Positions 10,835-45,390 of a stretch of 64,000 nt of DNA are shown here, piece after piece. Source of the stretch: Deltaproteobacteria bacterium. Lineage in GTDB: Bacteria; Desulfobacterota; WTBG01; CAIYCZ01; CAIRTM01. The stretch covers positions 30,174-94,173 of the forward strand of contig VGSH01000001.1 of NCBI GenBank assembly GCA_016875025.1. The letters are read 5' to 3'. The position numbers and the translations under genes are program-made. Within the stretch, counting starts at the first letter, position 1. Each line of letters opens with the position of its first letter. Below the pieces are notes generated by a model. That model saw only the letters and a list, made by a program, of their open reading frames with translations. It searched no databases and was not told the DNA's origin.

Positions 10835-12439
10835 GTGAATTCATGCGCGACCAAACCGGCCCGTTTCCTCCTGCTGCTGGCAGCCATATTCATTGTGCGG
10901 GGCATCGCGCTGCAGGGCCTGTATCCGCCGCTTGAGGGTTTTGACGAATACCAGCATATCGCCTGCATGCAGTATCTCGTCGAGAACCGCACTCTGCCGG
11001 TGTACGGCCGATCTCAGGTACCCGTTTCGCTCTACGGCGACATTGTCGCAAACCCGCATCCTGATTTCAGCCATCAGCAGACAGATCGAATCGGCGCGCT
11101 GTCCTACGCTCAGTTTTATACCGGCAGCCCTGTGCTGCCGGGGCTGGCCCCGATAGATCTGTATCAGGCACAGCATCCTCCGCTTTATTATGCCGCCATG
11201 GCTTCGCTGTACGTCTTTTCGCGTGCCGTGCTCGGCTTTCGCGCGGCGGTATATCTGCTGAGATGTGTCAACATCTGCGCTGCCGCTCTTGCCCTTGTGC
11301 TTCTGCTGTACCCCGTCAGGCGTATGTGTGCTGACAGCGCTCTCAGCAGACTGATGTGCCTTGCTGCGGCTTCATCGCCCCTGTTTATGGTGTATGTCGC
11401 GCGCGTGGCCAACGATGCGTTCGCGCTTATGTTCGCGGGATTTTCACTTGTATTGGTGCTGCGCGCTTCCGATGAAAGGCGGCCGCTCCTGTCTGCCGGA
11501 CTTGCCGGAGTGTGCGCCGGCCTGGCTGTACTGTCAAAGCTGAACGCTCTGGTGGTACTTCCCGCTGCGCTTTGCTACTGGGTTATACTTGCGGCCGTTT
11601 CAAACATTGCATGGCGTCGCTGTGTGCAGTTCTCCGTTTTTTTTACTGCCGGGTATCTGTTTATCTGCCTTCCGTTCCATGTGTGGGCGCAGGTGCAGTA
11701 TTCAACCTTTTTTCCGCAGCAGGAGACGCTCAGGTACATTGCTGCCGGACGGACCTCGATTGACTGGCTGCGCGAGTTTCGCTTCGGACATCTCTGGTCT
11801 TTCTTTGTCCGGCATGTTGTTTCACAAACGCTGTGGACAAGCGGCTGGTCGTTTCTTGCATTGCCGCGGCTGCCTGCATTGGCCTACAGGCTCTTGCTGG
11901 TTGCCGCCGCCTGCGGTGCTTTGTTCTGGTTGCGCGGCCGCAGGCGCACAGCATATGGCGAACTCATTCGTGATCTGCGCCCGCTGCTTCTCTGTCTGTT
12001 GCTGACGCTTGGTACCTTGTGCGCAGCCTACATGCATGCGCTGCACAGCCTGGCTGCATACGGTCTCATAAATACTCCGCCGCATTATGTAATGATCGCC
12101 TATCCGGCATTTCTCGGCTGCCTGTTTGCAGCTGCGCTGGGCTTCGGACGCAGGATTGCCGCAATCACTGCGATTGTAATGATAGCTCTTTTTACTTTTG
12201 CCGAACTTTATGGACTGCTGTTTGTGGCCGTTCCGTATTGGGCCCAGACCCTTGATTTTTCGTTGATGATGACGCGCCTTGCCTCTGTACACCCGGGTTT
12301 CCCCGCGCCCATTCATTTTTTTATTCTGTACCCGGCAGCTTTTGTGCTCCTGATAATTGCACTGCGCCCGTCACTGCGTATTTTTAGAACACAGGCCCGG
12401 CAGATACCTGAACAGCATGCAAGGCCGCCCGTTTGCTGA
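10835..12439 (+). CDS. GT-C fold membrane glycosyltransferase (ArnT/PMT, GT39/GT83-like)
   Basis: 534 aa, about 12 TM segments, with an N-terminal periplasmic-loop FDEYQH acidic motif as in the ArnT/PMT family. Confidence 0.6.
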   Translation: MNSCATKPARFLLLLAAIFIVRGIALQGLYPPLEGFDEYQHIACMQYLVENRTLPVYGRSQVPVSLYGDIVANPHPDFSHQQTDRIGALSYAQFYTGSPVLPGLAPIDLYQAQHPPLYYAAMASLYVFSRAVLGFRAAVYLLRCVNICAAALALVLLLYPVRRMCADSALSRLMCLAAASSPLFMVYVARVANDAFALMFAGFSLVLVLRASDERRPLLSAGLAGVCAGLAVLSKLNALVVLPAALCYWVILAAVSNIAWRRCVQFSVFFTAGYLFICLPFHVWAQVQYSTFFPQQETLRYIAAGRTSIDWLREFRFGHLWSFFVRHVVSQTLWTSGWSFLALPRLPALAYRLLLVAAACGALFWLRGRRRTAYGELIRDLRPLLLCLLLTLGTLCAAYMHALHSLAAYGLINTPPHYVMIAYPAFLGCLFAAALGFGRRIAAITAIVMIALFTFAELYGLLFVAVPYWAQTLDFSLMMTRLASVHPGFPAPIHFFILYPAAFVLLIIALRPSLRIFRTQARQIPEQHARPPVC

Positions 12440-12502
12440 TTTTTTGCATGCCGCAGAACCGGATGCTCATATAGCGTCGGCCTGCGGATGAGGAGACCTG
12501 AC

Positions 12503-13297
12503 ATGATTATCGATGTCCATAATCATTTAAGTCCGCCGGCGTCTGCGTACCGCATGGAGGCTGACAGCTATCTCGAAACCATGGATGCCTGCGGTGTTGA
12601 CAGGCTTGTCATTCTTGGCAAGGATTACGGCCCGGCCGGTGACCGGCGCAATGACAACCTTGCTGACGAAGATACGGTCGCTTTTGTAAAAGCCCATCCG
12701 GACCGTTTTATCGGCTTTACCGCGGTTCATCCCGACCGGGGAATAGCGGCCAATCTTGACCGCATCGACCGTGCCGTGCATGAATTCGGCCTGCGAGGCG
12801 TCAAGCTCAATCCTGCGTCGGGGTTCTATCCCAATGACGAGCGCCTATACCCTGTCTATGAAATGATCTCACAGCTCGGCATACCGGTGGTGATACATAT
12901 GGGTATTAAACCGCCATCAGAGGAAAGCAGGCTAAAGTATTGTCATCCCATCTATATTGATGACATAGCAGTTGATTTCCCGGGCCTGCGTCTCGTGATT
13001 GCGCATGCGGCCTATCCCTGGGTTGAGGACCTGATCATGGCTGCACTGTATGCGCCGAATGTGTCGGTTGACATCTCGACTCTGAACCAGATCGAGGATG
13101 CTCTGGGCTATCCCGTGATACTGCCGACCCTTGAAAAACTGGTGCGCGCGCTGGGCGCGGGCCGCGTACTGTTCGGCTCCGACGGCATATTCAATCTGGA
13201 GCCCCTGATCAGCGCTGTGCGCAGCGCTGCATTTCTCACCGACAGCGACCGGGAGTTGATTTTTTATAAGAATGCGCTCAAGTTACTCAGCCTGTAG
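12503..13297 (+). CDS. amidohydrolase-2 family metal-dependent hydrolase (TIM barrel)
   Basis: MIIDVHNHL start motif preceded by a GAGGAG RBS. Matches the amidohydro_2 family. Confidence 0.8.
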   Translation: MIIDVHNHLSPPASAYRMEADSYLETMDACGVDRLVILGKDYGPAGDRRNDNLADEDTVAFVKAHPDRFIGFTAVHPDRGIAANLDRIDRAVHEFGLRGVKLNPASGFYPNDERLYPVYEMISQLGIPVVIHMGIKPPSEESRLKYCHPIYIDDIAVDFPGLRLVIAHAAYPWVEDLIMAALYAPNVSVDISTLNQIEDALGYPVILPTLEKLVRALGAGRVLFGSDGIFNLEPLISAVRSAAFLTDSDRELIFYKNALKLLSL

Positions 13298-15591: not shown

Positions 15592-16249
15592 GCATATTAT
15601 AGAACTTCACGATGTATCCAAAAACTACACCCGCGGTGTTGAAACCGTGCATGCCCTGCAGGAAGTGACCCTGAACGTTTCCAAAGGTGATTTTATCGCT
15701 GTGGTCGGCCATTCGGGCTCCGGTAAAACGACGATGATGAATATCATGGGCTGCCTCGACCACCCGAGCAGCGGCAGTGTTATTCTGCAGGGCCGTCCGA
15801 TTGAGCAGGCGAGCGAGTCCGCACTGACCCGTATGCGCCGCAGTGCGATCGGGTTTGTGTTCCAGCAGTTTTTTCTGGTGCCGACGCTGACGGTTCTTGA
15901 AAACGTAACGCTTCCGGCACTGTTCAGCGGCAATCATACCAACGGCCGCTCCCGGGATTTACTGGAAATGGTCGGACTGGGAAAGCGGCTCAACCATCTG
16001 CCGGGCCAGCTCTCAGGCGGTGAAATGCAGCGCGCGGCCATTGCGCGCGCGCTGGTCAATTCACCGCCGCTGGTGCTCGCCGATGAACCGACCGGCAATC
16101 TTGATTCCCGCAACGCCGACATGATCATGGAGCTGTTTGAGCAGCTCAACCGCGACGGTGTCACCATCGTTCTGGTTACGCATAACGCTGATATCGTCAA
16201 ACACTGTGAAAGGACGGTGCACATTGAAGACGGCCGCATATCGCAGTAA
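15584..16249 (+). CDS. ABC transporter ATP-binding protein (MacB/LolD-like)
   Basis: Walker A GHSGSGKTT, signature LSGGEMQR and Walker B LVLADEPT. 8-nt overlap with the permease gene. Confidence 0.9.
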   Translation: MTEHIIELHDVSKNYTRGVETVHALQEVTLNVSKGDFIAVVGHSGSGKTTMMNIMGCLDHPSSGSVILQGRPIEQASESALTRMRRSAIGFVFQQFFLVPTLTVLENVTLPALFSGNHTNGRSRDLLEMVGLGKRLNHLPGQLSGGEMQRAAIARALVNSPPLVLADEPTGNLDSRNADMIMELFEQLNRDGVTIVLVTHNADIVKHCERTVHIEDGRISQ

Positions 16250-16298
16250 CAGGCGCGCGGAGGAATCGTCGATATGCCGTCTGCCGGATCAGGGAACA

Positions 16299-17327
16299 GT
16301 GCTGCGACCGGGCAGGAAGCGGGGGCGCCTTCTGTATGCGATCGTAGTTGCGATCGCGCTGATGTGCGCAACCGGCCCGGCCGCTGAGTGCCGGGCTTCA
16401 TGGAACCTGTCGCTTGATGCAGACGCGCGCGGCAGGGTTGCCTCCGGCAGCGAGCCTGACGCAACCCTGAACCTGTTCGGTGCGTCATTGCGCAAGACAT
16501 TTGCCGATGCCAAAGGCGACCGGCTTGTTCTTTTCGCGCTGTTTGAAAGCGAAGAGGGGTTTGATGAGTCCCGCGATGAGAGCCTGCATGAAATCTACGC
16601 CCAGTACAAGGGTCCGATGGGAGCATGGAATATCACCCTTGGCCGTTTCGGATTGCCGTGGGGCCTGCTGCCGAATTTTTCCGCGAGCAGGCTGCTCTAT
16701 GACATGCCGCATGACCGGGTGCTGGGCATGGATGTTGACAGCGGTATCAAGCTGTCCGGCGTGCAGGGCATATTTGATTACGGTCTGTCCTATACCCGCG
16801 GCTACGGCCCGCGCAACACGGTCGATGCGGGCTCGCACGGTATTGCCACGGGCCGCATCGGGATTACCCCGGGCGAAACCGAGGAATTATCTTTGGGTCT
16901 CTCGGGAGCCTTGGGCCGCTCAATCAACGCGCACGGCGCAGATCACGATGAGCCGGACCACGGCGACCCGGACCACCGCAGGCGCGATGATGACCGGGCC
17001 CTGCAGCGCGCAGTTGTCGGGCTTGACAGCACGCTCTATCTCGGCCGCTGGCTGATACGCAGCGAGGTATCAGGCGGGCAGGTTGATAAACGCGGTATGC
17101 GTGCATTTTTTGCCGGGGCTGATTATGCCCTGCGCTCAAACCTTGACCTGAATCTTGCGGTAAATCTCAGCCGTGTTGATTCGGAAACTATGAATGAGTG
17201 GTTTGCAGGACTTACCTGCAGGCTGCCCTGGTTTATCCTGAGAGGAGAATATCGGTATGTCGGATACGGTGATGCGCGCAATCAGATTACCATTCAGCTC
17301 TATCGTTTTTTTTCTTATACTTGGTAG
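16299..17327 (+). CDS. putative outer-membrane beta-barrel protein with a His/Asp-rich segment
   Basis: GTG start giving a signal peptide MLRPGRKRGRLLYAIVVAIALMCATGPAAEC. C-terminal aromatic terminus ...YRFFSYTW. HGADHDEPDHGDPDHRRRDDD stretch. Confidence 0.45.
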   Translation: MLRPGRKRGRLLYAIVVAIALMCATGPAAECRASWNLSLDADARGRVASGSEPDATLNLFGASLRKTFADAKGDRLVLFALFESEEGFDESRDESLHEIYAQYKGPMGAWNITLGRFGLPWGLLPNFSASRLLYDMPHDRVLGMDVDSGIKLSGVQGIFDYGLSYTRGYGPRNTVDAGSHGIATGRIGITPGETEELSLGLSGALGRSINAHGADHDEPDHGDPDHRRRDDDRALQRAVVGLDSTLYLGRWLIRSEVSGGQVDKRGMRAFFAGADYALRSNLDLNLAVNLSRVDSETMNEWFAGLTCRLPWFILRGEYRYVGYGDARNQITIQLYRFFSYTW

Positions 17328-17847
17328 CGCTCTGCCGGCTGCGGCACAGGAGGCGTATTTGTGCGTGTGGCGCAACCCTGAGCGGACCATGACACGGATT
17401 TTTCCGGATGCCCGTGACTATAAATCCGTTACAGCGCGGATATCGGCCGAGCAGCGGGCCGTGATCGAAAAAACGCTCGGCTACGAGCTGCTGCCCGGCC
17501 AGCAGGACCAGTTTCAGTATTATCATATGCTGGATGCCGGCGGCAGCGCTATCGGCACGATTATTCCGTCGACTCAGAAAGGCGAGTTCGGCGCCGTGGA
17601 ATTCGTGTTCGGGCTCGGACCTGATACGACGATCAAAGGCCTTTATATTCAGCGAGCGCGCGAGCGCGACCAGGCCTTTAAAGACAGGGCGTTTCTGGAA
17701 CAGTTCATCGGCCGTTCAGCCGCTGACCGGCAGGCCATTCAACAGGTTGACGGCGGCGGCACAACGCCCGGCAAGCAGGCTGTGATCCGCGGGCTGGTCA
17801 AGGAGCTGACTACCATGGACACGGTTGCCGCCGCTGTTGGTCAGTAG
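17257..17847 (+). CDS. exported FMN_bind-domain protein
   Basis: GAGAGGAGAA RBS and a signal peptide. GAVEFVFGLGPDTTIKGLYI and F-LEQFIGRS...VDGGGTTPGKQAV resemble the RnfG/NosR-type FMN-binding domain. Confidence 0.55.
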   Translation: MSDTVMRAIRLPFSSIVFFLILGSALPAAAQEAYLCVWRNPERTMTRIFPDARDYKSVTARISAEQRAVIEKTLGYELLPGQQDQFQYYHMLDAGGSAIGTIIPSTQKGEFGAVEFVFGLGPDTTIKGLYIQRARERDQAFKDRAFLEQFIGRSAADRQAIQQVDGGGTTPGKQAVIRGLVKELTTMDTVAAAVGQ

Positions 17848-19330: not shown

Positions 19331-19651
19331 GAGTTGGGAGAAGACAGGTTCATGGTTCAAGAATTTGCGTGGGCAGATCCCTGCGCCTGCCCCCGCAGGG
19401 GCGACCGGCCGGTCGCCCTTACACAGAGGGTCGATTCAGGGCCGTCATCTTTTTGCTCCTGCGATTTCGCCTGGAAAGTATATCCGTCTGATCGGTCGGA
19501 TTTGCCCGAACAGACCGCTTGTTTTCTTTTGCCTTGACAAGCACCTGTCCAGTAAGAATAATCATAGGTAACCGCGCAGCCGAGTTGATGTGTTGATTAA
19601 ATCACCCGTTTACAGCTGTGCTTTTCATTGTCCGGACTTGGATGGTATCCT

Positions 19652-19858
19652 ATGGCGTGCGTTAAAAAAAATCCCTGTCCTGACTGCACATTTTGCCAAT
19701 GGTGTTCCGACACCCGGTGTGCGGTGTGTATGGGTACATGTGAACGATGTCCGAAAAAAACACTGCAGGAGCAGATCGATGAATATGAACGCAACAACCC
19801 CGGCAGGCCGCAGGCGGATCAGCCGATCTTGTACAAAAAAACTCCAGTCGGCAGTTAA
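19652..19858 (+). CDS. possible Cys-rich small peptide (8 Cys in 25 aa); overlaps the next gene in another frame
   Basis: MACVKKNPCPDCTFCQWCSDTRCAVCMGTCERCP... Mixed GC3 composition. Overlaps the 19779 start region of the next gene, so either call may be wrong. Confidence 0.2.
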   Translation: MACVKKNPCPDCTFCQWCSDTRCAVCMGTCERCPKKTLQEQIDEYERNNPGRPQADQPILYKKTPVGS

Positions 19859-20984
19859 AACGGCGGCGTGTGCTCTGGTCGTGCTGCTGCTTGTGCGCGC
19901 ATCCGTGTGCCGGGCAGCCGCTGATGCCGATCTTTCCAAACTGCAGCCTGGCATGGCACTGCCGGCAATCCGCATTGTGCAGGACCTGACTCCTGAACAG
20001 CGCAGCTATCTTGGCCTGCCCGGCCGTCTGATCGGAATGTTCACGGGTAAGGGTTTCAAGCCTTCCGACGTTGCGGCCGATGTGCTGGTGATTGAATTTT
20101 TCAATGTGTACTGCACCTCCTGCCAGAGTCAGGCATCGATTCTGAACGAAGTGTTTCAGCGGGTCAACTCCCGTGACGACATGCGCGACCGGGTTAAATT
20201 TTTCGGCATCGGCGCGGGTAACAATCAGCAGGAAGCCGCCATGTTCATGCGGCGCTATTCGGTCGGTTTTCCGATGTTTCCTGATCCCGACTTTGTGAAC
20301 TACGAGGCTGTCGGCGAGCCGGGCGCAACTCCCCTTACAATTATTGCCCGGAAACACGGCAAAGAGCTTCTGGTTGTCAGCGCCCATGCCGGCCTTGTTA
20401 AAAATGCGGATGTTTTTATGACGGCCATACGCACTGCGCTGGCCAGCTCTCCTGATGGGCTTGCCGCTGAATCTGCGCAGAAGGAGCCGGCACAGGCCGT
20501 GAAACGGCCGCGCATTGAGCTGAATATGAGCGATGACCAGATTGAACAGGCTGTTCTCACCAGCATGCGCCGTGCTGCGGGCGGAGATGACTCCATTACA
20601 TCCGTGCGAACGGTGAGTTATCCGCGCAGCGGTGATATTTTTGTCGCCACGCCCGCAGGTGCTGTTTCAAATCTGTACGCGCAGGTTGTCAGCCGACCGC
20701 CCACATGTGATGTATGCCACGGTGTGCATTTTATTCTGGTGTTCGACGGAGCCGGCATTCTGCGCTATTTCGAGCCTCTGCACCTGACCAAGTACGGCAA
20801 TGTCGTGTGGACTCAATACGATGCCGATTTCATGCGGCGGCATTTGATCGGTCTTGATGTGCGGCAGCCCTTTGAATATAATCCGTCGGTTGATTCAGTG
20901 ACCACTGCCACCATGACATCCGTGATTATTTATAACAGCGCGCAGCGCCTGCGTGATGTACTCAAGGAAATTAAGTCGCAATAG
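19779..20984 (+). CDS. exported thioredoxin-like (CxxC) plus C-terminal FMN_bind domain fusion protein
   Basis: Signal peptide with a long basic n-region. VLVIEFFNVYCTSCQ redoxin motif. C-terminal VDSVTTATMTSVII matches the FMN_bind flavinylation motif (VDxxSGATxTS). CxxCH present (CDVCHG). Confidence 0.55.
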   Translation: MNMNATTPAGRRRISRSCTKKLQSAVKTAACALVVLLLVRASVCRAAADADLSKLQPGMALPAIRIVQDLTPEQRSYLGLPGRLIGMFTGKGFKPSDVAADVLVIEFFNVYCTSCQSQASILNEVFQRVNSRDDMRDRVKFFGIGAGNNQQEAAMFMRRYSVGFPMFPDPDFVNYEAVGEPGATPLTIIARKHGKELLVVSAHAGLVKNADVFMTAIRTALASSPDGLAAESAQKEPAQAVKRPRIELNMSDDQIEQAVLTSMRRAAGGDDSITSVRTVSYPRSGDIFVATPAGAVSNLYAQVVSRPPTCDVCHGVHFILVFDGAGILRYFEPLHLTKYGNVVWTQYDADFMRRHLIGLDVRQPFEYNPSVDSVTTATMTSVIIYNSAQRLRDVLKEIKSQ

Positions 20985-21375: not shown

Positions 21376-22215
21376 TTACCTGCGAAGGGCTTTCACACTG
21401 AAACCGGCAAGATAGATACAGCCCGTCACCATGACAATGGTAGCGCCCCCGGGCAGGTCGAGGCTGTAGCTCAGGCACAGGCCCGCAGCGATACACAGCA
21501 TGCTTATGACTGCGGCAGCGATCATCATCTGCCACAGCCTGCCGCAGAACTGACCGGCTATCGCAGCCGGCAGGCTCAGCAGGGCGACCACCATGATAAT
21601 TCCTACAATCCGTATCAGCAGCACGATCGTCAGCGCGGTCAGGCCCAGCAGCAGCAGGTACAGCATGCGGGTGTTGAGACCGCGCAGCCGCGCAAATTCC
21701 TCATCAAAGCACACCGCCTGCAGACGGTTATAGAAAAGCATGCTGATGACGATGATGACCGTGTCAAGGATGAGAATAATCCATACATCAGCCGATGAAA
21801 TCATCAGGATATTGCCGAACAGGTAGCTCATGGGATCTGTGTACCCCGGTGTTTTGGCGATCAGCAGGATGCCGGCTGCCATGCCCAGCACCCACAGTGC
21901 GCTGATAACCGTATCTTCGCGCTCACGGGCATACATGCTTACCACGCCGATTATCAGCGCCGCAGACAGGGCCGCGAACAGCGCTCCCAGAATCGGATCG
22001 GCCCAGGTCAGGCCGTACACCTGCTGGAGGTACAGTGCCGCGCCGATACCGCCCAGCACGCAGTGGGCGATAGAGCCGGCCAGATAGCTGATGCGCTTGA
22101 CCACCACGAACGAGCCGATGATGCCGAAGGCAATGCCGGCCAGCAGCCCGGCAGCCATGGCGTACCGCAGAAAAGCGATATCAGGATCGCGCAGGGCCTG
22201 GATAAATTCAATCAT
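21376..22215 (-). CDS. znuB: ABC-3 family metal (zinc/manganese) transporter permease
   Basis: 279-aa polytopic protein typical of ZnuB/MntB/TroCD. Overlaps the ATPase gene. Confidence 0.8.
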   Translation of the reverse strand: MIEFIQALRDPDIAFLRYAMAAGLLAGIAFGIIGSFVVVKRISYLAGSIAHCVLGGIGAALYLQQVYGLTWADPILGALFAALSAALIIGVVSMYAREREDTVISALWVLGMAAGILLIAKTPGYTDPMSYLFGNILMISSADVWIILILDTVIIVISMLFYNRLQAVCFDEEFARLRGLNTRMLYLLLLGLTALTIVLLIRIVGIIMVVALLSLPAAIAGQFCGRLWQMMIAAAVISMLCIAAGLCLSYSLDLPGGATIVMVTGCIYLAGFSVKALRR

Positions 22216-22966
22216 GGGTATGCCCCTGTTGTGAACACTGATGATCGTGCCGTACCATTTTCAGGTCCGAGCCGTAGATTTCCTGAATGATTTCGCCGGT
22301 GATTTCGCTGGTCGGGTGAAGCTTGACGGTGCGGTTCACGCACAGCACGCGATCCACCATGCGGGAGACAAAGCCGAGCTCATGGGTTACCGTGATAACG
22401 GTCAGGCGGTGTGCAAGGCGCGCAAGGGTGTCATTGACCTGCTGCTCCATGGCGGGATCGACATGCGCGGTCGGCTCATCCAGCAGCAGCAGTTCGGGTT
22501 CGCAGGCCAGGGCGCGGGCGATCAGCACACGCTGGCGCTGCCCGCCGGAAAGCGACGCAAACGGGCGCGCAGCCAGATCGACAAGGCCGGTTTGAGCAAG
22601 TGCCTGAAGGGCGGCTGCTTTGTCGGACCGTGAATAAAAAGAGCCCGGCCGTCTTCCCAGGCGGCCCATGAGCACAATATTGAGAACGCTGATGGGAAAA
22701 CTCGGATCAAAGTGCGTACTCTGGGGCATATAGCCGATACGGCGGCTGTTTGCATGCGGCATCCCGCCAAGAACCCTGATGCTGCCTGAGGCGGGGTGAT
22801 GAAGACCCAGTATGAGCTTGATGAGGGTTGTCTTGCCGCCGCCGTTGGGCCCTACAATGCAGACCGATTCGTGCTCGAAAAGGTTAAAGCTCACATTGTG
22901 GAGAATTTCCGTCTGGTCGTAGGCAAAGCAGACATTGTTGAAGCTGATTACGGGTTGCGGCATCAT
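22208..22966 (-). CDS. znuC: metal ABC transporter ATP-binding protein
   Basis: GPNGGGKTT Walker A, LSGGQRQR signature and LLLLDEPT Walker B. Confidence 0.85.
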   Translation of the reverse strand: MMPQPVISFNNVCFAYDQTEILHNVSFNLFEHESVCIVGPNGGGKTTLIKLILGLHHPASGSIRVLGGMPHANSRRIGYMPQSTHFDPSFPISVLNIVLMGRLGRRPGSFYSRSDKAAALQALAQTGLVDLAARPFASLSGGQRQRVLIARALACEPELLLLDEPTAHVDPAMEQQVNDTLARLAHRLTVITVTHELGFVSRMVDRVLCVNRTVKLHPTSEITGEIIQEIYGSDLKMVRHDHQCSQQGHTHD

Positions 22967-23967
22967 GGTGTATGCCCGTGGCCGGCTTTGGTATGCGCCG
23001 GGTCGTTTGGAATTGTTTGATCGAAGGCGCCCGCGATTGCATTGGCCATGGTCTGCAGGTTCCGAATAACATCTTTGGCAAGCGGATCAAGCGGCACTAC
23101 AGTCCCATTTATCTGGGCGGCAATGGTCTGCGCGGTTTTGGTATCAAATTGCGGCTGCACAAAGATGGTGCGCACGCCCGATGAGCGGGCCTGTTTGATC
23201 AGTGCGGAAATGTGCCGGGCAGTCGGCTGGCGACCGTTGATTTCAACCGTCTGCTGGTTCAAAGTGTAGGTGTGGGCAAAATAGCCGAATGCAGGATGAT
23301 ACACAAAAAAAGTCCTGTTCCGATGCGGTTGCAGAAGTCTGAGATTTCCAGCATGTGCGGCCTCAAGTGCGGCCAGCAGCCGGGTGGTGTTTTGGGCATA
23401 GGCCGCTGCATTGTCGGGATCAGCTTCAGTGATGACACGCTGCGCGAGTTCGATGAACTGGCGCAGTTGACGGGTTCCGAGCCAGAAGTGCGGGTCATGT
23501 CCGGTGTGGTCATGATCAGCGCCGTGATCACCGGAACAGACCTGTTCGTGGTCGGCACTCAGGAGGTCAATGTGCTTTCCCGTGTCAATGATGCGGATTT
23601 TTGTATGCTGAGCCCTGATCTTGTCCACCAGAATACGTTCAAAGGGCAGTCCGGCCATCAGGTACAGCTGAGCATTGGACAGCCTGTGCAGCAGGCGCGG
23701 TCCCGGTTCAAACATGTGCGGGTCCTGACCCTCCGGAAGGAGTGTGTCGACCGTAACCAGCGTGCCGCCGATCTGTTCAATGCAGTAAGCCAGCGGCGCG
23801 ATAGCGGTACAGATGCGCAGGGGGGTAGCTTCAGGCCGGGCAGGGTTGCCGGCGGTCGGGTACAGCAGCGCAATCAGGCACAGGTGTAAAATCAGTGCCG
23901 TGCTCTGACACCGGCTCCGCATCCGTAAACAGGCGCGTGATGCCATTCTGGAAAATTCCGCGTGCAT
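22963..23967 (-). CDS. znuA: metal ABC transporter periplasmic substrate-binding protein (ZnuA/TroA family) with a His-rich loop
   Basis: Cluster-9 SBP fold signatures plus a His-rich loop DHGADHDHTGHDPH characteristic of zinc-specific ZnuA. Confidence 0.75.
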   Translation of the reverse strand: MHAEFSRMASRACLRMRSRCQSTALILHLCLIALLYPTAGNPARPEATPLRICTAIAPLAYCIEQIGGTLVTVDTLLPEGQDPHMFEPGPRLLHRLSNAQLYLMAGLPFERILVDKIRAQHTKIRIIDTGKHIDLLSADHEQVCSGDHGADHDHTGHDPHFWLGTRQLRQFIELAQRVITEADPDNAAAYAQNTTRLLAALEAAHAGNLRLLQPHRNRTFFVYHPAFGYFAHTYTLNQQTVEINGRQPTARHISALIKQARSSGVRTIFVQPQFDTKTAQTIAAQINGTVVPLDPLAKDVIRNLQTMANAIAGAFDQTIPNDPAHTKAGHGHTP

Positions 23968-24301
23968 GCTCTCTCAGTGTGCTGGTGCCATGGTGAAAAA
24001 GTGAACGATAACCCTGACATGCCTGTCTGGTGTGGCTGCAAAATTTCAGCCGCTTACCAGAGCACGTTATAACAATTCATGGGTGTAATCGCAAGACTGA
24101 AAAAAGCCATGTTCTGGTTTGGAAGGTCTGGCTTTTTAAATGTATTCTGAGGGCGGATAATATCTTTTGTTTTCCGCCGCGCAAAGGAGTAGTATGGTGA
24201 CACATGCAGACGTCCTTCCGCATGACCCGCGCCGGGATTTTTCCGCTGTGTTCTCTCATACACAGGCTTTTTTAACAATGCCCATTTCAGCAGGAGCTTT
24301 T

Positions 24302-25528
24302 ATGGAAAACAAAAGAATATTCATAGGGAATTTAGAATTCTCTGTGACAGAGGATGATGTGAAAAGCCTTGTGGCGCACTACGGTGCTGTTGTGTCGGTT
24401 AAAATGAATCGTAAAAAAGGCTTTGCGTTTATCGAGATGGATACCGCTGAAGCTGCCGCACGAGCGGTGCAGCAGCTTGACGGCATAAAGCACAGGGATC
24501 GTGAAATCCGCCTGAGCTTTGAAATGAAAGCCGCCAAGGCGAGGTTCGTATCGGCAAAACGATACAAAGAGCGCGGTGATGCTTTTGCCCGGCACAGAGC
24601 CGAAGCTCTGCCTGACCCGGAAAGACTGTTGTCAGATGAGCGGCAGCCGTATCCGCGTCGTGCTGAACGGGGCGGCGGCCGGCCGGTTTATAAACGCACA
24701 TCGGGGCCGGATGCGGGCGTTGGGTCGCGCGGCCGCTCAGGCGCTGCAGATGCGCGCCCGGCGCGATCATATCAACGCGATGCCGGAGCAGCGTCGCGGC
24801 CTGCTAAGCGTCCATGGTCCGAAGAGAAACCGTCCTATCCGCGCCGGCCAGACCGTGATGGTGAGCGGCCGGTTTATAAACGCGCGCCGAAGCCTGATGC
24901 GGGCGTTGCTCCGCGCCGGAGACCAGGCGATGCAGACAGGCGTCCGGCGCGATCATATCAACGCGATGCCGGAGCAGCGTCGCGGCCTGCTAAGCGTCCA
25001 TGGTCGGAAGAGAAACCCTTGTATCCGCGCCGGTCGGCAGGCGCGGGCGAACAGACTGCATACAGGCGCACACCGAAGCCGGATGCGGGTTTTACACCGC
25101 GCGGGGGCATGCGCGCTGCAGACGCACGGCCGCCGCGAACCTGTCGGCGCGATACAGGCGCACCCGGACGGCCTGTCAGACGTCCATGGTCGGAAGAGAA
25201 ACCCTTGTATCCGCGCCCGGCTGAACGGGATGGCGGACGTGACGGATATGCACGGGCTCCGAAAAAAGAATGGCCTTCAGCGCGACCGTCGCGACCCGCA
25301 GTGAAAACAGGCGAGCCCCGGGGAGAGCATTCTCAGAGAAAAAAAATATCTGGCGGCAAGCCGCATGATGTTTTAAAACAGAGGCCTGCAGGCGGTACGC
25401 ATGGCAAATACAGGAAACCGTCGCGTCCGGGCGCGCGTCGTGCAGCAGGTACTTCAGCCCCATCCCGACACAAAGTCCGCGGCAATTCACAGGATCGCGG
25501 CACCCCCCGCAAAGAGACTGAGCAGTAA
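24302..25528 (+). CDS. RRM-domain RNA-binding protein with a long basic/Pro-rich C-terminal tandem-repeat tail
   Basis: N-terminal RNP motifs IFIGNLEFS and KGFAFIEM. The C-terminus contains about 3.5 copies of a 57-60-aa repeat (PxYPRR...RPVYKR...PKPDAG...RPWSEEK). Confidence 0.6.
   Translation: MENKRIFIGNLEFSVTEDDVKSLVAHYGAVVSVKMNRKKGFAFIEMDTAEAAARAVQQLDGIKHRDREIRLSFEMKAAKARFVSAKRYKERGDAFARHRAEALPDPERLLSDERQPYPRRAERGGGRPVYKRTSGPDAGVGSRGRSGAADARPARSYQRDAGAASRPAKRPWSEEKPSYPRRPDRDGERPVYKRAPKPDAGVAPRRRPGDADRRPARSYQRDAGAASRPAKRPWSEEKPLYPRRSAGAGEQTAYRRTPKPDAGFTPRGGMRAADARPPRTCRRDTGAPGRPVRRPWSEEKPLYPRPAERDGGRDGYARAPKKEWPSARPSRPAVKTGEPRGEHSQRKKISGGKPHDVLKQRPAGGTHGKYRKPSRPGARRAAGTSAPSRHKVRGNSQDRGTPRKETEQ
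24646..25290 (+). repeat. in-frame tandem repeat array (about 171-180 bp unit, about 3.5 copies) inside the RRM protein gene
   Basis: Near-identical DNA blocks, e.g. gcgatcatatcaacgcgatgccggagcagcgtcgcggcctgctaagcgtccatggtc recurs. Coding, not CRISPR. Confidence 0.8.
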
Positions 25529-25624: not shown

Positions 25625-26263
25625 TCAGATGCACAAATCCAGCATCGAATAGATAATATGGGTCGGCTTGCGGGGCATATGTTCGGGATTATTATGGCTC
25701 CAGGCCACAAAGGCAGTGTCGGTATGCGCGCGCTGGCCGCACTCAATGTCAAAAGGGGCATCGCCGACGAACAGGGCTGCTTCCGGGGCGGCGTTCAGCA
25801 GCTCCAGCGCTTTGAGGGCCGGCTCGGGGTGGGGTTTGTGATGTTCGGTTTCATCCGGGGTCACCATGACGCTGAAGCAGTCATAGATACCGGTCTCGCG
25901 CAGGAAGCAGGAAAGGGATGCTATCTTGCGCGAGGTAACGATGGCGAGCGTTTTGCCTGCGGCGCGCAGCTTTTCAATCGCCTCGGGTACCCCGGGGCAG
26001 GGTGCGAGATAGTCCCGGTAGATGCTCATCTGGTAGTTCATGTGGTCGGCTTGAATCCGGTCAAACTGCGCATCGCTTAAGGGGCCGATGTGGTGTTCGA
26101 ACTGTTTGCGAAGGGTCAGGCCGATACTGGCGATGATTTCTTCCCGGGGGATTTCACGGTTGGCATGTTTGCGCAGGCTGTATACAAAACAGCGGTAAAT
26201 CAGTTCGGTTGTTTCAAACAGGGTGCCGTCAGCATCAAAGAGGTAATAATCATAGGATTTCAT
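25625..26263 (-). CDS. HAD-superfamily hydrolase (phosphoglycolate phosphatase-like)
   Basis: N-terminal YLFDADGTLF motif I. LAIVTSR motif II. GDAPFDIECG motif IV. Confidence 0.75.
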   Translation of the reverse strand: MKSYDYYLFDADGTLFETTELIYRCFVYSLRKHANREIPREEIIASIGLTLRKQFEHHIGPLSDAQFDRIQADHMNYQMSIYRDYLAPCPGVPEAIEKLRAAGKTLAIVTSRKIASLSCFLRETGIYDCFSVMVTPDETEHHKPHPEPALKALELLNAAPEAALFVGDAPFDIECGQRAHTDTAFVAWSHNNPEHMPRKPTHIIYSMLDLCI

Positions 26264-26353
26264 TGCGGGAAGGCCTGTGTCGCAGCTGCAGCGGCGTGTG
26301 CTTTTGCGTGATGATGATGTGTGTTATGCTGAAGCCTGAAGCCCGGATAGCGA

Positions 26354-26905
26354 TTATTTCTCCGTGCTTTCGGTCCGGGCTGTGTTGATGGTTACGAGGT
26401 CAGCTTCGGTTGTAATGCTGACGTTCAGGTTTGCCGTGCCCTTTTTACCGTTCAGCATGACAATATTGTCAAGATCATAGCGGGATCCCGGTTCCCAGCC
26501 CTTGAGCTGTATCTGTTCTTCATAAAACAGGATGACGCTTTCAGCCGGCTGCTGTGTCGTAATTGTCGCTATTGCATTGCGGCCGCCCTGAAACACCTGG
26601 CTCATGACAACTGTGCTCTCAGGCAGCACCGGTATGTCGGCGGGGAATTTCGGCGCAAGTTTTCCGGTGTTGATGTCGACAGTGTCTGCTTCACCTTCAC
26701 CATCATCAGGTTTCAGCAGTATTGAGGCGCTTTCATGGTTGCCTTTGATCAGAACTGTGCCGTCGGGGCCGCGTACTTCAATACCGTCTTCGCTTTCCTG
26801 CACCTGAAGTCTGCCGCCCGGCCTTCCGGATTGGCCGCTATTATCGCAGGCGGTCAGAATGCTGAATATCGCGCACATGAGCAGGCAGGAATATGTTGTT
26901 TTCAT
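26354..26905 (-). CDS. lipoprotein, unknown function
   Basis: Signal/lipobox MKTTYSCLLMCAIFSILTAC. Confidence 0.45.
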   Translation of the reverse strand: MKTTYSCLLMCAIFSILTACDNSGQSGRPGGRLQVQESEDGIEVRGPDGTVLIKGNHESASILLKPDDGEGEADTVDINTGKLAPKFPADIPVLPESTVVMSQVFQGGRNAIATITTQQPAESVILFYEEQIQLKGWEPGSRYDLDNIVMLNGKKGTANLNVSITTEADLVTINTARTESTEK

Positions 26906-27259
26906 GACGTTTTTTTTCCTATAAAGCATACCGCGGGTTTGTTCGGGTCCTGCTGCCATTCGTGTGGGGCCGGTTCCGGCATACGTTTCATGGAGCATCA
27001 GGCGCGGGTCCTGTTTTTTTGTAAACATACATAACCCGGGTAAGGTTTGTCAATCGGAAATACACAGCAGGAACTGTTTGCAAACTTAATTTTTAGTGTT
27101 AAAATCCAATCCGTTTCTCTGATAAGCAGTCTTGTTGAATCAGCAGTGTCCAAGACAATGTAAACAGGCCCGGCCGGCAGGGCTCACCACGCTGCTCCGG
27201 TAATCTATATTAGTCAGATCTGCTATTGAATAATTATTTTTAGAAAGGTCGATGCTCTC

Positions 27260-28378
27260 ATGCGAAGCGTAATTAACATGAAAAACCTGATCGCGTACGC
27301 TGCGGCAATTGTTGTTTGGGGATGCATGTCAACCGGCACACGCGTTGATCATGCGGGGGATCCAGGAACAATCTCGAGCGATCCCAGGATAGTATTTAAA
27401 ACCCAGTCGCATGATTTCGGCACCGTCCAGTACAGCACGGCCGGGCTCACCCACGCGTTTGTATTTGAAAACAGGGGCAGTGCACCCCTGATGATAAAAA
27501 ACATCAAGTCCGGCTGAGGCTGCGCGGCAGCGCTGGCCTCGGCCGGCGAGATTCCCCCGGGCGGGGAAGGGAAAATAAATGTAACCTTCAGGCCGGGCAG
27601 CCGTGAGGGTGTCCAGAAGAAGAGCATTCATGTCGAGACCAATGATCCATCCGCTCAGCAGCTGCGGCTTGAAGTGCGTGCAACCGTTGAGATGGTGCTG
27701 GCGATAAGTCCGGCAACGATTATGTTTCCTGCCTTTACTGGCGCGTCCGGCAGCGCGCAGCCGCTGTATGCCCGGATTTCGGGCAGCCAGAGCGCAGAGG
27801 TGAGCATCACCGCGGTTGAGTGTGCCAATAAGCTTCTCAGTGTTGAGGTTAACCGCAGCGGGTTTGATAATGATCCCGGCCGGCAGATCAAATTCAGCGT
27901 TCTGCCGGGCATGCCAATCGGCCGGTTCCGCGAACGGGTTGTGCTCGCAACCGATAGCGACAAGGTGCCTTCGCTGAGCCTGTTCGTGATGGGCGAGGTG
28001 CTGGGGCCGATCAGCGTTACCCCGCGGCATCTGCCGCTTGGCACGATTCAGGCTGGGACACCAGTGCGCAAAATCATCCGGCTGCAGTCCGAGCAGCCTG
28101 AGTCCGGGTTCAGGATCGTCGATGTCAAAAGCACGGTCGAGGGCATGACCACGGAGCTTATAACGGTTAAGCCGGGCAGCCAGTACCAGATCGCGGTCGG
28201 GCTTGCCGAAGGATTTTTCCAGCCGGTTATTCGCGGTGAGATCATTATTACAACCGACAACAAAGATCAGGCCACCATCGCCGTACGGGTGTTCGGCCGC
28301 ATCAGCACGGCGGACATGCGAAACATGCCGGCACAGCCATTGAAGCCTGCAGGAGCCGCGCCCGGTATCGTTAAGTAA
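27260..28378 (+). CDS. DUF1573-family exported protein with in-frame UGA (27515-27517) at the conserved Cys position; candidate selenoprotein
   Basis: The ORFs 27260-27517 and 27674-28378 are in the same frame, with a single TGA between them. The read-through gives HDFGTVQYS...FVFENRGSAPLMIKNIKSG-U-GCAAALASAGEIPPGGEGKINVTFRPG...IHVETNDP. This matches the DUF1573 core (F-F-N-G-PL-I-V-SCGCT...PG-G-I-V-F...TND), with U replacing the first Cys of CGC. There is a hairpin 13 nt downstream. Confidence 0.5.
27531..27548 (+). promoter_or_regulatory. GC-rich hairpin 13 nt downstream of the in-frame UGA; possible bacterial SECIS-like element
   Basis: CGCUGGC-CUCG-GCCGGCG forms a 7-bp stem with a 4-nt loop immediately 3' of the UGA. 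The position fits bacterial SECIS placement. Confidence 0.3.
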
Positions 28379-28476
28379 TCACTATGCCCTGAAATCAGGG
28401 CGCAGCGCCCGGTGCAGCCGCCTGAGCGCCCGTGCACTGCGCTCAGCAATGCCGTATCTACAGGGGGGAACAATCC

Positions 28477-30969
<2,493 letters not shown>

Positions 30970-31032
30970 CCCGGTCCGTATCCTGCCGTTTTTGCTGCTG
31001 TTCAGGTGTGCGGGAACCGGAATGCTCGGCCC

Positions 31033-33615
31033 TTATGCCTGTATAATCGTCAACTCTTCGGCGCCGTTTCGGTGATCGACCCGCACCCGGTCGTTTTCTT
31101 TAAAGGTTCCCTCAAGAATTTTAAGCGCCAGCGGATCCTGAATGTAGCGCTGGATGGCGCGCTTCATGGGCCGGGCTCCGTAGACGGGGTCGAAGCCGTG
31201 GCTGACGATAAAGTCAAGCGCGGCCGCGCTTACCTCCAGATCAAGCCGCCTGTCGGCCAGACGCTTCGTGAGCAGTTCAAGTTGCAGCTCAACGATCCGC
31301 CGGAGCTCTCCGATCTCGAGACTGTTGAACAGCACAACTTCGTCAATACGGTTTAAAAATTCAGGCTTCAGCGTGGCGCGCAGTATTTCCATGACGCGCT
31401 GTTCGCGCTCAGCTCCGCGGCAATCAAGCATTGCCTGGCTGCCGAGGTTGGACGTCATGATGATGATCGCGTTTTTAAAGTCAACGGTGCGGCCCTGGCC
31501 GTCGGTCAGGCGGCCGTCATCGAGAATCTGCAGCAGGATATTGAAAACATCCGGGTGTGCTTTTTCAAATTCGTCGAACAGGATGACGGCATAGGGCCTG
31601 CGCCGGATCTGTTCGGTCAGATACCCGCCCTCGTCATAGCCGACATAGCCCGGGGGCGCGCCGATCAGGCGTGCGACTGAATGTTTTTCCATGTACTCGG
31701 ACATGTCGATCCGGATCATCGAGTGTTCGTCGTCGAAGAGAAACTGGGCCAGCGCACGCGCAAGTTCGGTTTTGCCGACACCGGTGGGGCCCATAAAAAT
31801 AAACGATCCAAGCGGGCGGTTGGGGTCCTGCAGGCCGGAGCGCGCCCGGCGAACGGAATTTGCCACGAGTTTGATGGCGCCATCCTGACCGACGACGCGC
31901 CTGCCGATGCGCTCCTCCATGTGAACCAGCTTTTCAAGCTCGCCTTCAAGCATGCGCGCAACCGGTATACCGGTCCATTTGGAAACTATTTCGGCGATGT
32001 CCTCCTCGTCGACTTCTTCTTTCAGCATGCGTGTTTCAGCACCCGCCTCACTGTAGCGCTGGTTGGCCTGTGCAAGCCGGCGCTCGAGCTCGCTCAGGGT
32101 GCCGTAGCGGAGCTGGGCCACTTTTTCAAAGTTACCGGCACGCTCGGCGCGCAGTTCCTCCTGCCGGGCTTCTTCGATCTGCTCCTTGATATGCTGGATG
32201 GACTGGATGGTGTCCTTTTCAGCCTGCCACTGACCGGTGCTGTCTGCGCACTGTTTTTTGAGTGTGTCGATTTCAGCGCTGATACGTTCGAGCCGGTCAC
32301 GTGAAGCCGGGTCTTTTTCTTTTTTGAGAGCTTCCCGCTCGATTTCAGCCTGCATGAGCCGGCGCTGAAGTTCATCGATTTCCGCGGGCAGGCTGTCGAT
32401 CTCCATGCGCAGCGCGGAGGCAGCCTCGTCGATCAGGTCAACCGCCTTGTCGGGCAGGAAGCGGTCGGTTATGTAGCGGTGCGACAGCATAGCCGCAGCT
32501 ACAATGGCAGCATCCTGGATGCGCACCCCGTGATGCAGCTCATAGCGCTCTTTCAGGCCGCGTAGAATAGAAATCGTGTCCTCGACAGTCGGTTCCTTGA
32601 CCAGTACCGGCTGAAAGCGCCGTTCGAGCGCCGCGTCTTTTTCGATATATTTGCGGTATTCATTCAGTGTGGTTGCGCCAATGCAGCGCAGCTCACCGCG
32701 AGCCAGAGCGGGCTTGAGCATATTGGATGCGTCAACTGCGCCTTCGGCCGAGCCGGCGCCGACAACCGTGTGCAGCTCATCTATGAACATGATGATCCGG
32801 CCGTCAGAGGCCTGAACTTCCTTGAGTACCGCTTTAAGGCGGTCTTCAAATTCACCACGGTATTTTGCGCCGGCCAGCAGCGAACCCATATCGAGCGAAA
32901 CAAGGCGTTTATTACGCAGACCCTCAGGGACATCACCATTGATGATACGCCGGGCGAGCCCTTCAACAATCGCTGTTTTGCCGACGCCCGGTTCACCGAT
33001 CAGGACCGGGTTGTTCTTGGTTCGGCGCGACAGAACCTGAATGACGCGCCTGATTTCGCTGTCGCGTCCGATCACCGGGTCAAGCTTGTCGGCGAGCGCC
33101 TGTTCGGTCAGGTCGCGCGCGTACTGCTGCAGGGCCTGATATTTGTTTTCGGGATTCTGGTCGGTAACGCGCTGCGTGCCGCGCAGCGTGCTCATTGCTT
33201 TTAAAATATCGTCCCGGCTGACACCTGCCTGTTTGAGCAGGCGCACGGCCTGTGAGTCGGCGCAGTCGAATATGGCCAGCAGCAGATGCTCAACGCTGAT
33301 GAATTCATCGCTGAGGCGGCGGGCCTCCTGCCAGGCGGCTTCAAGCATTTTCTTCGTGCGTGCCGATATATATACGTCCATGCCGCTGCCGCTGACAGCG
33401 GGCAGGGCCGACAGGGCAGCATCAAGGGCCGACTGGAGGTCTGGCAGATTAACGCCGGCTTTCTGGAGCACTGTTCTGCCGATCGATCCGTCCTGTGAAA
33501 GCACGGCCTGCAGCACGTGCTCGGGTTCAATCTGCTGATGACCCAAACGCGCTGCTGCCTGTTCGGCGGCCGTCAGAACTTCCTGGGTTTTTATGGTACA
33601 TTTATCGGTGCGCAT
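31033..33615 (-). CDS. clpB: ATP-dependent chaperone ClpB
   Basis: Two AAA+ modules ([15 protein letters not shown] and [15 protein letters not shown]), a middle coiled-coil and a Clp N-domain. Start chosen at [11 protein letters not shown] with an AGGAT RBS. Confidence 0.95.
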
Positions 33616-33640
33616 AGTTTTATATCCTGCATTATTTCTT

Positions 33641-33925
33641 TCCAATATACATTACTGGAGCAGCCTGAAAAGCCCTGCCGGCCGGGACGCCTCCGGCGCA
33701 TCCGGCACACAAGAACTCATTGTATAATCGGCCCGTGTGCCGGTATATTTCAAACGGGCCAGGCACGCTGTGCTATTTTTGTCTGCAGCAGCGCGCCCGG
33801 GCCGTGTACCAACTGAAATTTACATGGCGTGCCGTTGCATCGGCAGTGCAACAACTGCCGGATGCGCCGGAGGCGTCCCGGCCGGCAGGGCTTATGCAAA
33901 TTATTTTGGTTAGTACTGATCCTTT
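33641..33925 (+). repeat. MITE-like palindromic element, diverged copy C, in the clpB upstream/leader region
   Basis: The shared core ggcccgtgtgccgg.atatttcaaacgggccaggcacgc is in the same orientation as copy A. The 36-bp arms (33667-33702 and 33851-33886) differ from copy A but remain exactly complementary to each other. The left TIR is degenerate and the right TIR is aaattattttgg. Confidence 0.7.
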
Positions 33926-42987: not shown

Positions 42988-43008
42988 AAGGATATGTGAG
43001 GTTTGCAG

Positions 43009-44064
43009 ATGCTGTCATTTGGGTCTTCCAAAAAATTGATTGGTGTCGATGTCGGAACCAGTTCTGTTAAGCTGGTTGAGCTGGAGGAGGCCAAGGGCGG
43101 CTACCGGCTTAAAAATTTCGGCCTCGCCAGACTTCCCCGTGAAACCATTGTCAATGGTGTTGTTATCAATGCCGAGCCGCTGATTCAGGCCGTTAAGGGC
43201 CTGATCAGCAGCCTCAAAATAAACTGTCGCGATGTTGCTTTTTCCGTGTCCTGCCATCCGGTGATTATCAAGAAAATTGCGCTGCCTCTCATGACCGAAG
43301 ATTCGCTTGAGCCGGTTATCGTCAGTGAGGCGGAGCAGTATATTCCTTTTGACCTTGACGAGGTTAATATCGATTTTCAGATACTCGGTGTCAATGAAGA
43401 TAATCCTGAAATGATGGATGTTATGCTCGTGGCTGCCAAGAAGGCCATGATCGAAGAATATACCGACGCCTTTCAGCACGCGGGGCTGCGCTGCCGCATT
43501 GTTGACATAGATGTTTTCGCTCTTGAGAACATGTTCAATCTCAATTATCTGCATGAAGAGAATGAAACCTTTGCGCTTGTGGATATAGGCGCAAGCGTAA
43601 CCAATATCAACATTCTCAAGAACGGAACGTCGATATTCAACCGCGATGTGTTCCTGGGCGGCAATCAGATAACGGAAGAGATCCAGAAAGAGCTTTCAGT
43701 CAGTTTCGAAGAAGCCGAAATGCTTAAGACCGGTGAGGAAATTGAGGGCATTGATCACGGGATGCTTGATCAGATCATCGCTAAAACCGCCCAGTCGATC
43801 GCTCGTGAAATTCAGAGGACACTTGAGTTCTTTACCAGCTCAACCTTCGTTGAGATCAACCATCTCTTCCTGAGCGGCGGTGCATCCAAGACCTCGGGCC
43901 TCAAGGAGATGATCGAAGAGAAGATGAACCTGGTGGTTGAATTTATCGATCCTTTTAAGGTTATTAAATACGATACAAAGTCATTTGATCCCGAATATAT
44001 GCGGGATGTTTCGGCGGTTGCGGCTGTCGGGGTCGGACTTGCCACCCGCAGGATTGGGGAGTGA
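43009..44064 (+). CDS. pilM: type IV pilus assembly protein PilM (actin-like ATPase)
   Basis: LIGVDVGTSSVKLVEL N-terminus. Conserved order with the pilNOPQ genes downstream. GTGAGG RBS. Confidence 0.9.
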   Translation: MLSFGSSKKLIGVDVGTSSVKLVELEEAKGGYRLKNFGLARLPRETIVNGVVINAEPLIQAVKGLISSLKINCRDVAFSVSCHPVIIKKIALPLMTEDSLEPVIVSEAEQYIPFDLDEVNIDFQILGVNEDNPEMMDVMLVAAKKAMIEEYTDAFQHAGLRCRIVDIDVFALENMFNLNYLHEENETFALVDIGASVTNINILKNGTSIFNRDVFLGGNQITEEIQKELSVSFEEAEMLKTGEEIEGIDHGMLDQIIAKTAQSIAREIQRTLEFFTSSTFVEINHLFLSGGASKTSGLKEMIEEKMNLVVEFIDPFKVIKYDTKSFDPEYMRDVSAVAAVGVGLATRRIGE

Positions 44065-44070
44065 CCGGCA

Positions 44071-44649
44071 ATGATTAAGATAAATCTGCTGCCATACCGG
44101 GCTGCTCGGAAAAAAGAGATCATTACGCGGCAGATAGTTATTGGAGCACTGCCGCTGCTGGTGACCTGCCTGATAATCGGCTTTTTCTGGTGGTCTATTA
44201 ACGCAAGCAATACCAAGGCCCAGAACGATATAGCGGATCTTAAGGAAAAAATCAGGCAGAGTGCGCTCAAAATGAAAGATATCGAGAATTTCAAGGCGCA
44301 AAAAGAGCTGCTTGAAAAAAAGCTTGATATTATAGCGTCGCTTCAGAAAAACAAGTCCGGACCTGTGCGCCTGCTTGATGCGCTCTCTACGTGCCTGCCG
44401 GGAAATCTGTGGTTGATTAAGCTCGAGCAGAAGGGCACGGATCTGATGCTTGATGGCCGTTCCATGGATAATCTGTCGATTTCACGGTATATGGTCAGCA
44501 TTGAGAATTCCGATTTGCTGAATACTGTAGAGCTTGGGGAGATTAAAACCGACACCAAGGCGTCCATCGCCGGAGGTGTTGTTTTGAAGGTTTTTAAAAT
44601 GAAATCCAAGGTTGCATACAGCGGAGATGCTCCCGCTCCGTCAAGCTGA
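44071..44649 (+). CDS. pilN: type IV pilus assembly protein PilN
   Basis: MIKINLLPYRAARKKE start and a single TM segment. GGGGAG RBS. Confidence 0.9.
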   Translation: MIKINLLPYRAARKKEIITRQIVIGALPLLVTCLIIGFFWWSINASNTKAQNDIADLKEKIRQSALKMKDIENFKAQKELLEKKLDIIASLQKNKSGPVRLLDALSTCLPGNLWLIKLEQKGTDLMLDGRSMDNLSISRYMVSIENSDLLNTVELGEIKTDTKASIAGGVVLKVFKMKSKVAYSGDAPAPSS

Positions 44650-44702
44650 GATTGCAGCCGCCTGCCGGGCGAAGAATTACTGAAATATTATACGGACACA
44701 TT

Positions 44703-45368: not shown

Positions 45369-45390
45369 TATCGCAGAATAGGACACGACA

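Follow-up and report, generated by a model that had tools for sequence, protein, structure and literature searches.

Selenoproteins of the OS_HP2 family were first reported in 2007, as a new family in the delta-1 and delta-4 symbionts of Olavius algarvensis (Zhang & Gladyshev, PMC1976440). The Global Ocean Sampling (GOS) paper of 2008 described 'OS_HP2' as pfam07610 with the motif UxC, two selenocysteine (Sec, U) forms and 354 Cys homologues (PMC2398784), and reviews from 2022 and 2026 include a DUF1573 domain-containing protein with the motif UGC as a selenoprotein. In bacteria, Sec codons are followed by a selenocysteine insertion sequence (SECIS), for which the bSECISearch model gives a consensus of a 3–9-nucleotide (nt) loop with G in the first two loop positions, a stem of 4–16 bp, a UGA-to-loop distance of 16–37 nt and a minimum free energy of −7.5 kcal/mol or lower (PMC13188914). 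Here we analyse a gene at positions 27260–28378 (+) of a 64,000-nt stretch (hereafter, the window) of contig VGSH01000001.1 from a Deltaproteobacteria bacterium, the reading frame of which contains an in-frame UGA. An earlier note on this DNA, made from the sequence alone, had proposed a new selenoprotein. The novelty did not survive, as OS_HP2 has been in print since 2007 as pfam07610 with the UxC/UGC motif and has its own NCBIfam model, NF041425; the gene had gone unrecognised as one of the known OS_HP2/DUF1573 selenoproteins, and finding it is a rediscovery that introduces neither a new family nor a new principle.

The locus shares with described OS_HP2 genes the pfam07610 domain, Sec as the first residue of a U-x-C motif (here U-G-C, with C-G-C in Cys homologues), deltaproteobacterial hosts and a stem-loop after the UGA. 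We found the UGA at position 1 of U-x-C within pfam07610, a Sec/Cys pair and TGA-bearing homologues elsewhere. The best NCBIfam match of the window protein was NF041425, 'OS_HP2 family (seleno)protein' (87.7 bits, E = 5e-25, profile positions 2–98 of 98). Six homologues with the architecture of the window protein, four of them Sec and two Cys forms, scored 84.3–98.1 bits against this model, and only a two-domain protein, P0019, reached its 100-bit cutoff. The clade thus lies just under the threshold and the model would not name its members automatically, which probably contributes to their persisting split annotation.

Conservation of an in-frame UGA

A single frame runs from ATG 27260 to TAA 28376–28378 (+), with TGA 27515–27517 as its sole internal stop. 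The complete selenoprotein coding sequence (27260–28378, +) comprises 372 residues with Sec at position 86 and ends at TAA; it is preceded by a purine-rich AGAAAGG (27242–27248, +), a likely ribosome-binding site 11 nt before the ATG. Read as Sec, the UGA (27515–27517, +) supplies position 1 of U-G-C in the motif G-U-G-C (residues 85–88), and Cys88 (27521–27523, +), encoded by TGC in 17/17 aligned sequences, is its likely resolving partner. The immunoglobulin (Ig)-like DUF1573 domain (PF07610) interrupted by the UGA occupies 27389–27688 (+), or residues 44–143, by both Pfam and NCBIfam profiles. With U read as C, the Pfam match scored 88.7 bits (cutoff, 26.1; E = 2.7e-25) and covered profile positions 1–98 of 98. 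This end-to-end coverage places the TGA inside the domain and not between genes. The earlier note had described two same-frame open reading frames (ORFs) around one TGA, and a DUF1573 domain made continuous by read-through; both descriptions hold, and the peptide it quoted is exact.

A single scan each of a genome collection and of metagenomes yielded 16 relatives of the gene (loci L001–L003 and L006–L018). In each of the 16 (51–74% identity), TGA occupies the exact homologous codon, flanked as K-A-G-TGA-G-C-T-A-A-L, and no further stop interrupts the frame. A more distant clade of four genes, in L023 (two tandem copies), L024 and L025, keeps the TGA in 4/4 cases, bringing the total to 20 genes at 19 loci, with ~40–75% protein identity and three gene-context groups. 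Identity to the window protein was 45–60% upstream of the TGA and 64–83% over the 53 codons that separate the TGA from GTG 27674, indicating that both sides are translated and under selection.

Homologues with Cys in place of Sec set the register of the codon. P0007 (locus L020), P0018 (L021), L004 and L005 have TGC at the TGA position, giving C-G-C (motifs SDCGCTAALASADEIPPGG in P0007 and ASCGCTVALASAKEIPPGG in P0018), and alignment with them bears out the earlier placement of the TGA on a conserved Cys, the first of C-G-C. The Cys locus L020 shares its neighbourhood (a PP-loop-like gene, an FMN reductase and SnoaL) with the Sec loci L003 and L016, and the Sec/Cys exchange is therefore an orthologous one. 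More broadly, Cys-form DUF1573 proteins, including P0007, P0018 and Bacteroidota two-domain proteins with SCGCT, have the fold and motif position of the window protein; they differ in having TGC for TGA and in lacking the exact sequence of the distal hairpin described below, and the Bacteroidota forms, with two DUF1573 domains, are also built differently.

In public databases the gene appears as two separate proteins, P0036 (the N-terminal 85 aa) and P0001 (the C-terminal 234 aa, 100% identical), the latter begun by gene callers at GTG 27674, the next in-frame start candidate, 156 nt downstream of the TGA. Relatives L001–L018 and L023–L025 are likewise split into an N-terminal piece ending ...KAG and a C-terminal piece with an arbitrary internal start. 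Nearly all of the closest database relatives are C-terminal fragments of 225–265 aa with assorted internal start codons, the signature of a common in-frame stop. When the 85-aa fragment was searched against 1.84 billion cluster representatives, at least 17 short proteins (clusters at 50% identity, the window's own fragment included) aligned as far as their C-terminal residue. Every one of them ends in ...KAG, immediately before the TGA, and the Sec form is therefore widespread. The selenoprotein clade is systematically mis-annotated in public gene calls.

Two hairpins downstream of the UGA

RNA structure was compared across 21 Sec sequences, the window gene and its 20 relatives. A proximal hairpin at 27531–27548 (+) has a stem of 7–8 bp that begins 13 nt after the TGA and a variable loop of 4–6 nt that starts 20 nt after it. 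Folded alone, the window version has an energy of −14.8 kcal/mol, and energies among the relatives ranged from −5.2 to −14.8 kcal/mol. Paired cells made up 90.5% of the proximal helix and 94.9% of the two-hairpin structure, as against 46–67% in slid controls. Compensatory changes occurred at two proximal pairs (GC/GU/CG/UA and CG/UA/UG), and the covariation score was 0.140 (shuffles, 0.088), a level that 1 of 500 shuffles reached; none of these changes was present among the first 17 sequences, and they emerged only once the distant clade had been added. The loop sequence varies freely (CUCG, UUCG, UUCU, AUCC, UACC, UUCA, UACG and others). The GC-rich hairpin that the earlier note had placed at 27531–27548, 13 nt from the UGA, therefore exists and is conserved, with compensatory changes.

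Further downstream, at 27552–27568 (+), lies a distal hairpin, UUCCCC-CGGGC-GGGGAA, with a 6-bp stem (−8.9 kcal/mol) and a 5-nt loop that contains GGG and starts 40 nt after the UGA. It was identical in 21/21 Sec genes apart from one loop C/U, all six stem pairs being invariant, and the 17-mer (with one loop Y) was present at every Sec locus and no Cys locus and occurred once in the window. The hairpin overlaps codons for I-P-P-G-G-E-G, and the synonymous sites of its stem, six in all, are frozen; the sole variable synonymous site is GGC/GGT at codon +15, in the loop. In two Cys homologues that encode these residues (controls, n = 2), the distal stem is disrupted by GGA codons; the other full-length Cys homologues found were Bacteroidota two-domain proteins that lack the IPPGGEG stretch and so offer no codon control. 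Sliding-window synonymous divergence reached its minimum for the whole gene at codons +4 to +21 (0.17 versus a mean of 0.41). Among degenerate columns with an invariant amino acid, a single codon was used at 8/12 between +1 and +18 and at 7/74 elsewhere (17 sequences; Fisher p = 4e-5). This second, sequence-invariant hairpin was absent from the earlier note; as a candidate SelB-binding element it ranks no lower than the first.

A long hairpin that includes the UGA (−42 kcal/mol and z = −3.5 for 27510–27580) was considered as a functional element and rejected, its pairing not being conserved in most relatives. Around the UGA (27510–27549) it is seen only in the window and partly in L001, L006 and L007, and it competes with the proximal hairpin.

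Weighing the readings of the UGA

A lone in-frame stop within a domain resembles a fresh nonsense mutation, and TGC becomes TGA by a one-base change, so that a pseudogene, or a sequencing or assembly error, in a former Cys gene has to be considered. However, the same TGA recurs in 20 relatives from independent assemblies at ~40–75% identity with no other stops or frameshifts, the protein is conserved on both sides of it and the RNA downstream is constrained, while the divergence of the assemblies excludes one common contaminating sequence; a nonsense lesion or error is effectively refuted, and we accord it a negligible probability. The databases do contain exactly the two products (P0036 and P0001) expected if an 85-residue secreted peptide ended at the TGA and a separate gene for a 234-residue protein started at GTG 27674. 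Yet the DUF1573 domain spans the TGA, the protein is best conserved over the 156 nt between it and GTG 27674, the internal starts chosen by gene callers differ among relatives as those of an artefact would, and Cys homologues are single proteins of 363–370 aa, all of which make a pair of genes extremely improbable. It is also very unlikely that the UGA is recoded to something other than Sec, whether by near-cognate read-through or by lineage reassignment to Trp, Gly or Cys. The failure to find Sec machinery within the window would suit such recoding, but TGA ends 23/56 long window ORFs at normal protein lengths, which excludes genome-wide reassignment; moreover, homologues have Cys at the aligned position, as is characteristic of Sec/Cys pairs, the conserved hairpins directly downstream fit the bacterial Sec mechanism, and the family is a published selenoprotein family.

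Several observations nevertheless weigh against selenocysteine, or against parts of that interpretation. Pfam and NCBIfam scans found no selA, selB or selD among the ~53 long window ORFs, and no gene for tRNA-Sec (selC) was found within the 64-kb window; Sec decoding in the source organism is thus inferred. No other credible selenoprotein candidate emerged among the window's same-frame ORF pairs split by TGA. The window protein, although it covers NF041425 over its full length, falls short of the 100-bit cutoff at 87.7 bits. Rfam returned no match in the whole window at gathering thresholds, and a permissive scan of 27480–27620 gave only chance matches (CRISPR repeats, small nucleolar RNAs) and no SECIS family. 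Each hairpin departs from the SECIS consensus in one respect: the proximal one has no G in the first two loop positions, its 20-nt spacing being within range, and the distal one agrees in everything except its spacing of 40 nt (range, 16–37 nt). The redox function considered below rests on analogy only. With all of this taken into account, we hold with high confidence that UGA 27515–27517 is a genuine Sec codon, as the earlier note had proposed, in an unannotated member of the OS_HP2/DUF1573 family; the shared TGA of the 20 relatives, the Cys homologues and the constraint on the downstream RNA all back this assignment.

From the comparative sequence data we conclude that a putative SECIS-type element is present downstream of the UGA. 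Decoding would follow the standard bacterial route, in which SelB–GTP–Sec-tRNA(Sec) would be recruited by RNA structure in the coding sequence just 3' of the UGA. Here that structure would be the conserved hairpin pair, the proximal member conserved in structure and the distal, GGG-loop member invariant in sequence. As in bacterial SECIS elements such as that of Escherichia coli fdhF, the stem-loops lie within the coding sequence directly 3' of the UGA and the distal loop is small with G-G. The window gene differs in having two separate conserved hairpins instead of one; unlike in canonical SECIS elements, the hairpin with the G-G loop lies at 40 nt and the one at canonical distance lacks the loop G. 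The proximal hairpin could by itself be the SECIS, as the earlier note had it, with the distal hairpin serving ribosome pausing or mRNA stability, or reflecting codon or amino-acid constraint on I-P-P-G-G-E-G; we regard this combination as a reasonable minority position. In its favour, the proximal loop at 20 nt lies inside the 16–37-nt consensus range, compensatory changes were found in this hairpin, and its stem at 13 nt starts near that of the minimal E. coli fdhF SECIS hairpin, which begins about 11 nt after the UGA. Against it, the proximal loop sequence is not conserved and the hairpin is weak in L008 and L018 (−5.2 kcal/mol), whereas the distal hairpin combines the G-G loop signature with absolute sequence conservation, including six synonymous sites, and is disrupted where Cys homologues encode identical amino acids (two controls only). 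Because the G-rich loop is invariant, we lean slightly towards the distal hairpin as the SelB determinant, with the proximal hairpin as a structured spacer. A fuller version, in which the clade uses a non-canonical bipartite SECIS whose covarying proximal spacer would bring a distal SelB-binding element to the ribosome, is speculative and in our judgement rather unlikely.

Protein architecture, gene context and significance

The window gene most likely encodes an exported protein of ~370 residues with three predicted Ig-like domains, the first of which (DUF1573) would carry the Sec. An N-terminal export signal, MRSVINMKNLIAYAAAIVVWGC (27260–27325, +), was judged by eye and is possibly a lipoprotein signal ending at Cys22; by the same judgement, a hydrophobic signal is found at the N terminus of every relative and ends in a lipobox-like G-C (VVWGC in the window) or in AxA-Q. 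Two further beta-sandwich (Ig-like) domains span approximately residues 146–348 (27695–28303, +), with approximate boundaries transferred by alignment from the AlphaFold2 model of the Cys homologue P0007 (54% identical). That model has a mean predicted local distance difference test (pLDDT) score of 88.8 and three beta-sandwich domains, and its C-G-C forms a four-residue turn between strands 78–85 and 90–94. Searched against the PDB with Foldseek, the P0007 model matched only generic tandem Ig/ASH-type domains; the sole match in a PDB sequence search was 2qsv (E = 0.19). Pfam PF22544, the family of HYDIN/CFAP65/VesB-like tandem Ig/ASH domains, also matched (E = 3.7e-15). The beta-sandwich is common to these proteins, and the top Foldseek matches were ciliary central-apparatus ASH-domain proteins, but the likeness is one of fold only (9–15% identity) and they lack Sec and the CxC site; function is not transferable from them to the window protein.

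Sec generally replaces a catalytic redox Cys. On that analogy, and with low confidence, the U-G-C site may serve in redox or in chalcogen or metal handling, and probably alternates, in the periplasm, between a selenolate/thiol state and an intramolecular selenenylsulfide. The fold of the P0007 model, with Foldseek, is an Ig-like beta-sandwich and not thioredoxin-like, no conserved redox partner gene was found across the three gene contexts, and OS_HP2 is not among the families flagged in the GOS table as related to known thiol oxidoreductases (PMC2398784). These results make membership of a known oxidoreductase family less likely and do not lower the idea of a redox-active site. A literature search on DUF1573 function returned only selenoprotein lists.

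The Sec genes fall into three contexts: HAD/hypothetical lipoprotein/GlgP/ClpB (window, L002, L007, L008, L009 and L018), DHH/PP-loop-like/FMN reductase/SnoaL, and Amidohydro_3/MraZ/FtsZ. No neighbouring gene is shared among them. Synteny from the HAD hydrolase to ClpB (window 25625–33645) is kept in L002, L007, L008, L009 and L018, where the neighbours are mostly 80–92% identical (the adjacent hypothetical lipoprotein lower) and the selenoprotein 53–61%, indicating that it evolves much faster than its surroundings. It thus appears to be a fast-evolving surface or periplasmic protein that has nevertheless retained the UGA and the RNA element. A gene at 26354–27028 (−), divergent from the selenoprotein gene, encodes a hypothetical protein of 224 aa that has a lipoprotein-like signal (LTAC) and matches nothing in Pfam; this gene also adjoins the selenoprotein gene in L002, L008 and L018, and a functional link between the two is possible. 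Copy number varies. The window has a single Sec gene, L002 (3001–4116) and L003 (3001–3975) are two Sec paralogues on the same 461-kb contig, CAVRPV010000010.1, and L023 has tandem copies (2501–3814 and 3821–4882), both of which include a UGA and the two hairpins.

Two other interrupted loci in the window were considered as recoding or read-through sites. A Sulfotransfer_3 match is split over ORFs in different frames at 9921–10361 and 10367–10771 (+), covering profile positions 1–133 and then 165–216, with the break at ...LFPDAKFLHMARD-TGA; this was rejected as a recoding site and looks like a one-base frameshift (pseudogene or sequencing error). A PMT_2 glycosyltransferase-like ORF ending in TGA (10835–12439) and an Amidohydro_2 ORF (12488–13297; both +) share a frame and lie 49 nt apart; since the domains are distinct and the second ORF has its own start, a pair of ordinary genes is the most likely reading. 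Elsewhere, a 453-aa protein (24167–25528, +), unusually long for a bacterial RRM protein, has a single RRM_1 domain at residues 51–115 and a long unmatched remainder. Long ORFs (196–514 aa) without a Pfam match at E ≤ 1e-5 lie at 16137–17327, 17257–17847, 19590–20984, 48125–49477, 53449–54360, 60697–61842 and 62063–63607. The window also contains a type IV pilus cluster, pilM-N-O-P-Q (43003–48171, +), a ZnuABC-type zinc ATP-binding cassette transporter (21376–23967, −), and ZIP and GDT1 transporters (581–2393).

For the window gene and dozens of relatives, the fragments now in the databases join into one full exported protein of ~370 residues once the UGA is read as Sec. The OS_HP2/DUF1573 family gains three gene-context groups, paralogues and tandem duplicates, together with comparative data on the downstream RNA, in which one hairpin covaries and another, invariant, lies outside the usual spacing rule. 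Should the bipartite SECIS prove true, it would represent a distinct class of bacterial SECIS beyond the 16–37-nt consensus and would provide a ready-made search pattern for mis-annotated genes, TGAGGNTGC-N28-TTCCCCCGGGYGGGGAA. Separately, the exported Ig-like scaffold with its U-G-C motif could represent an uncharacterised periplasmic selenol chemistry.

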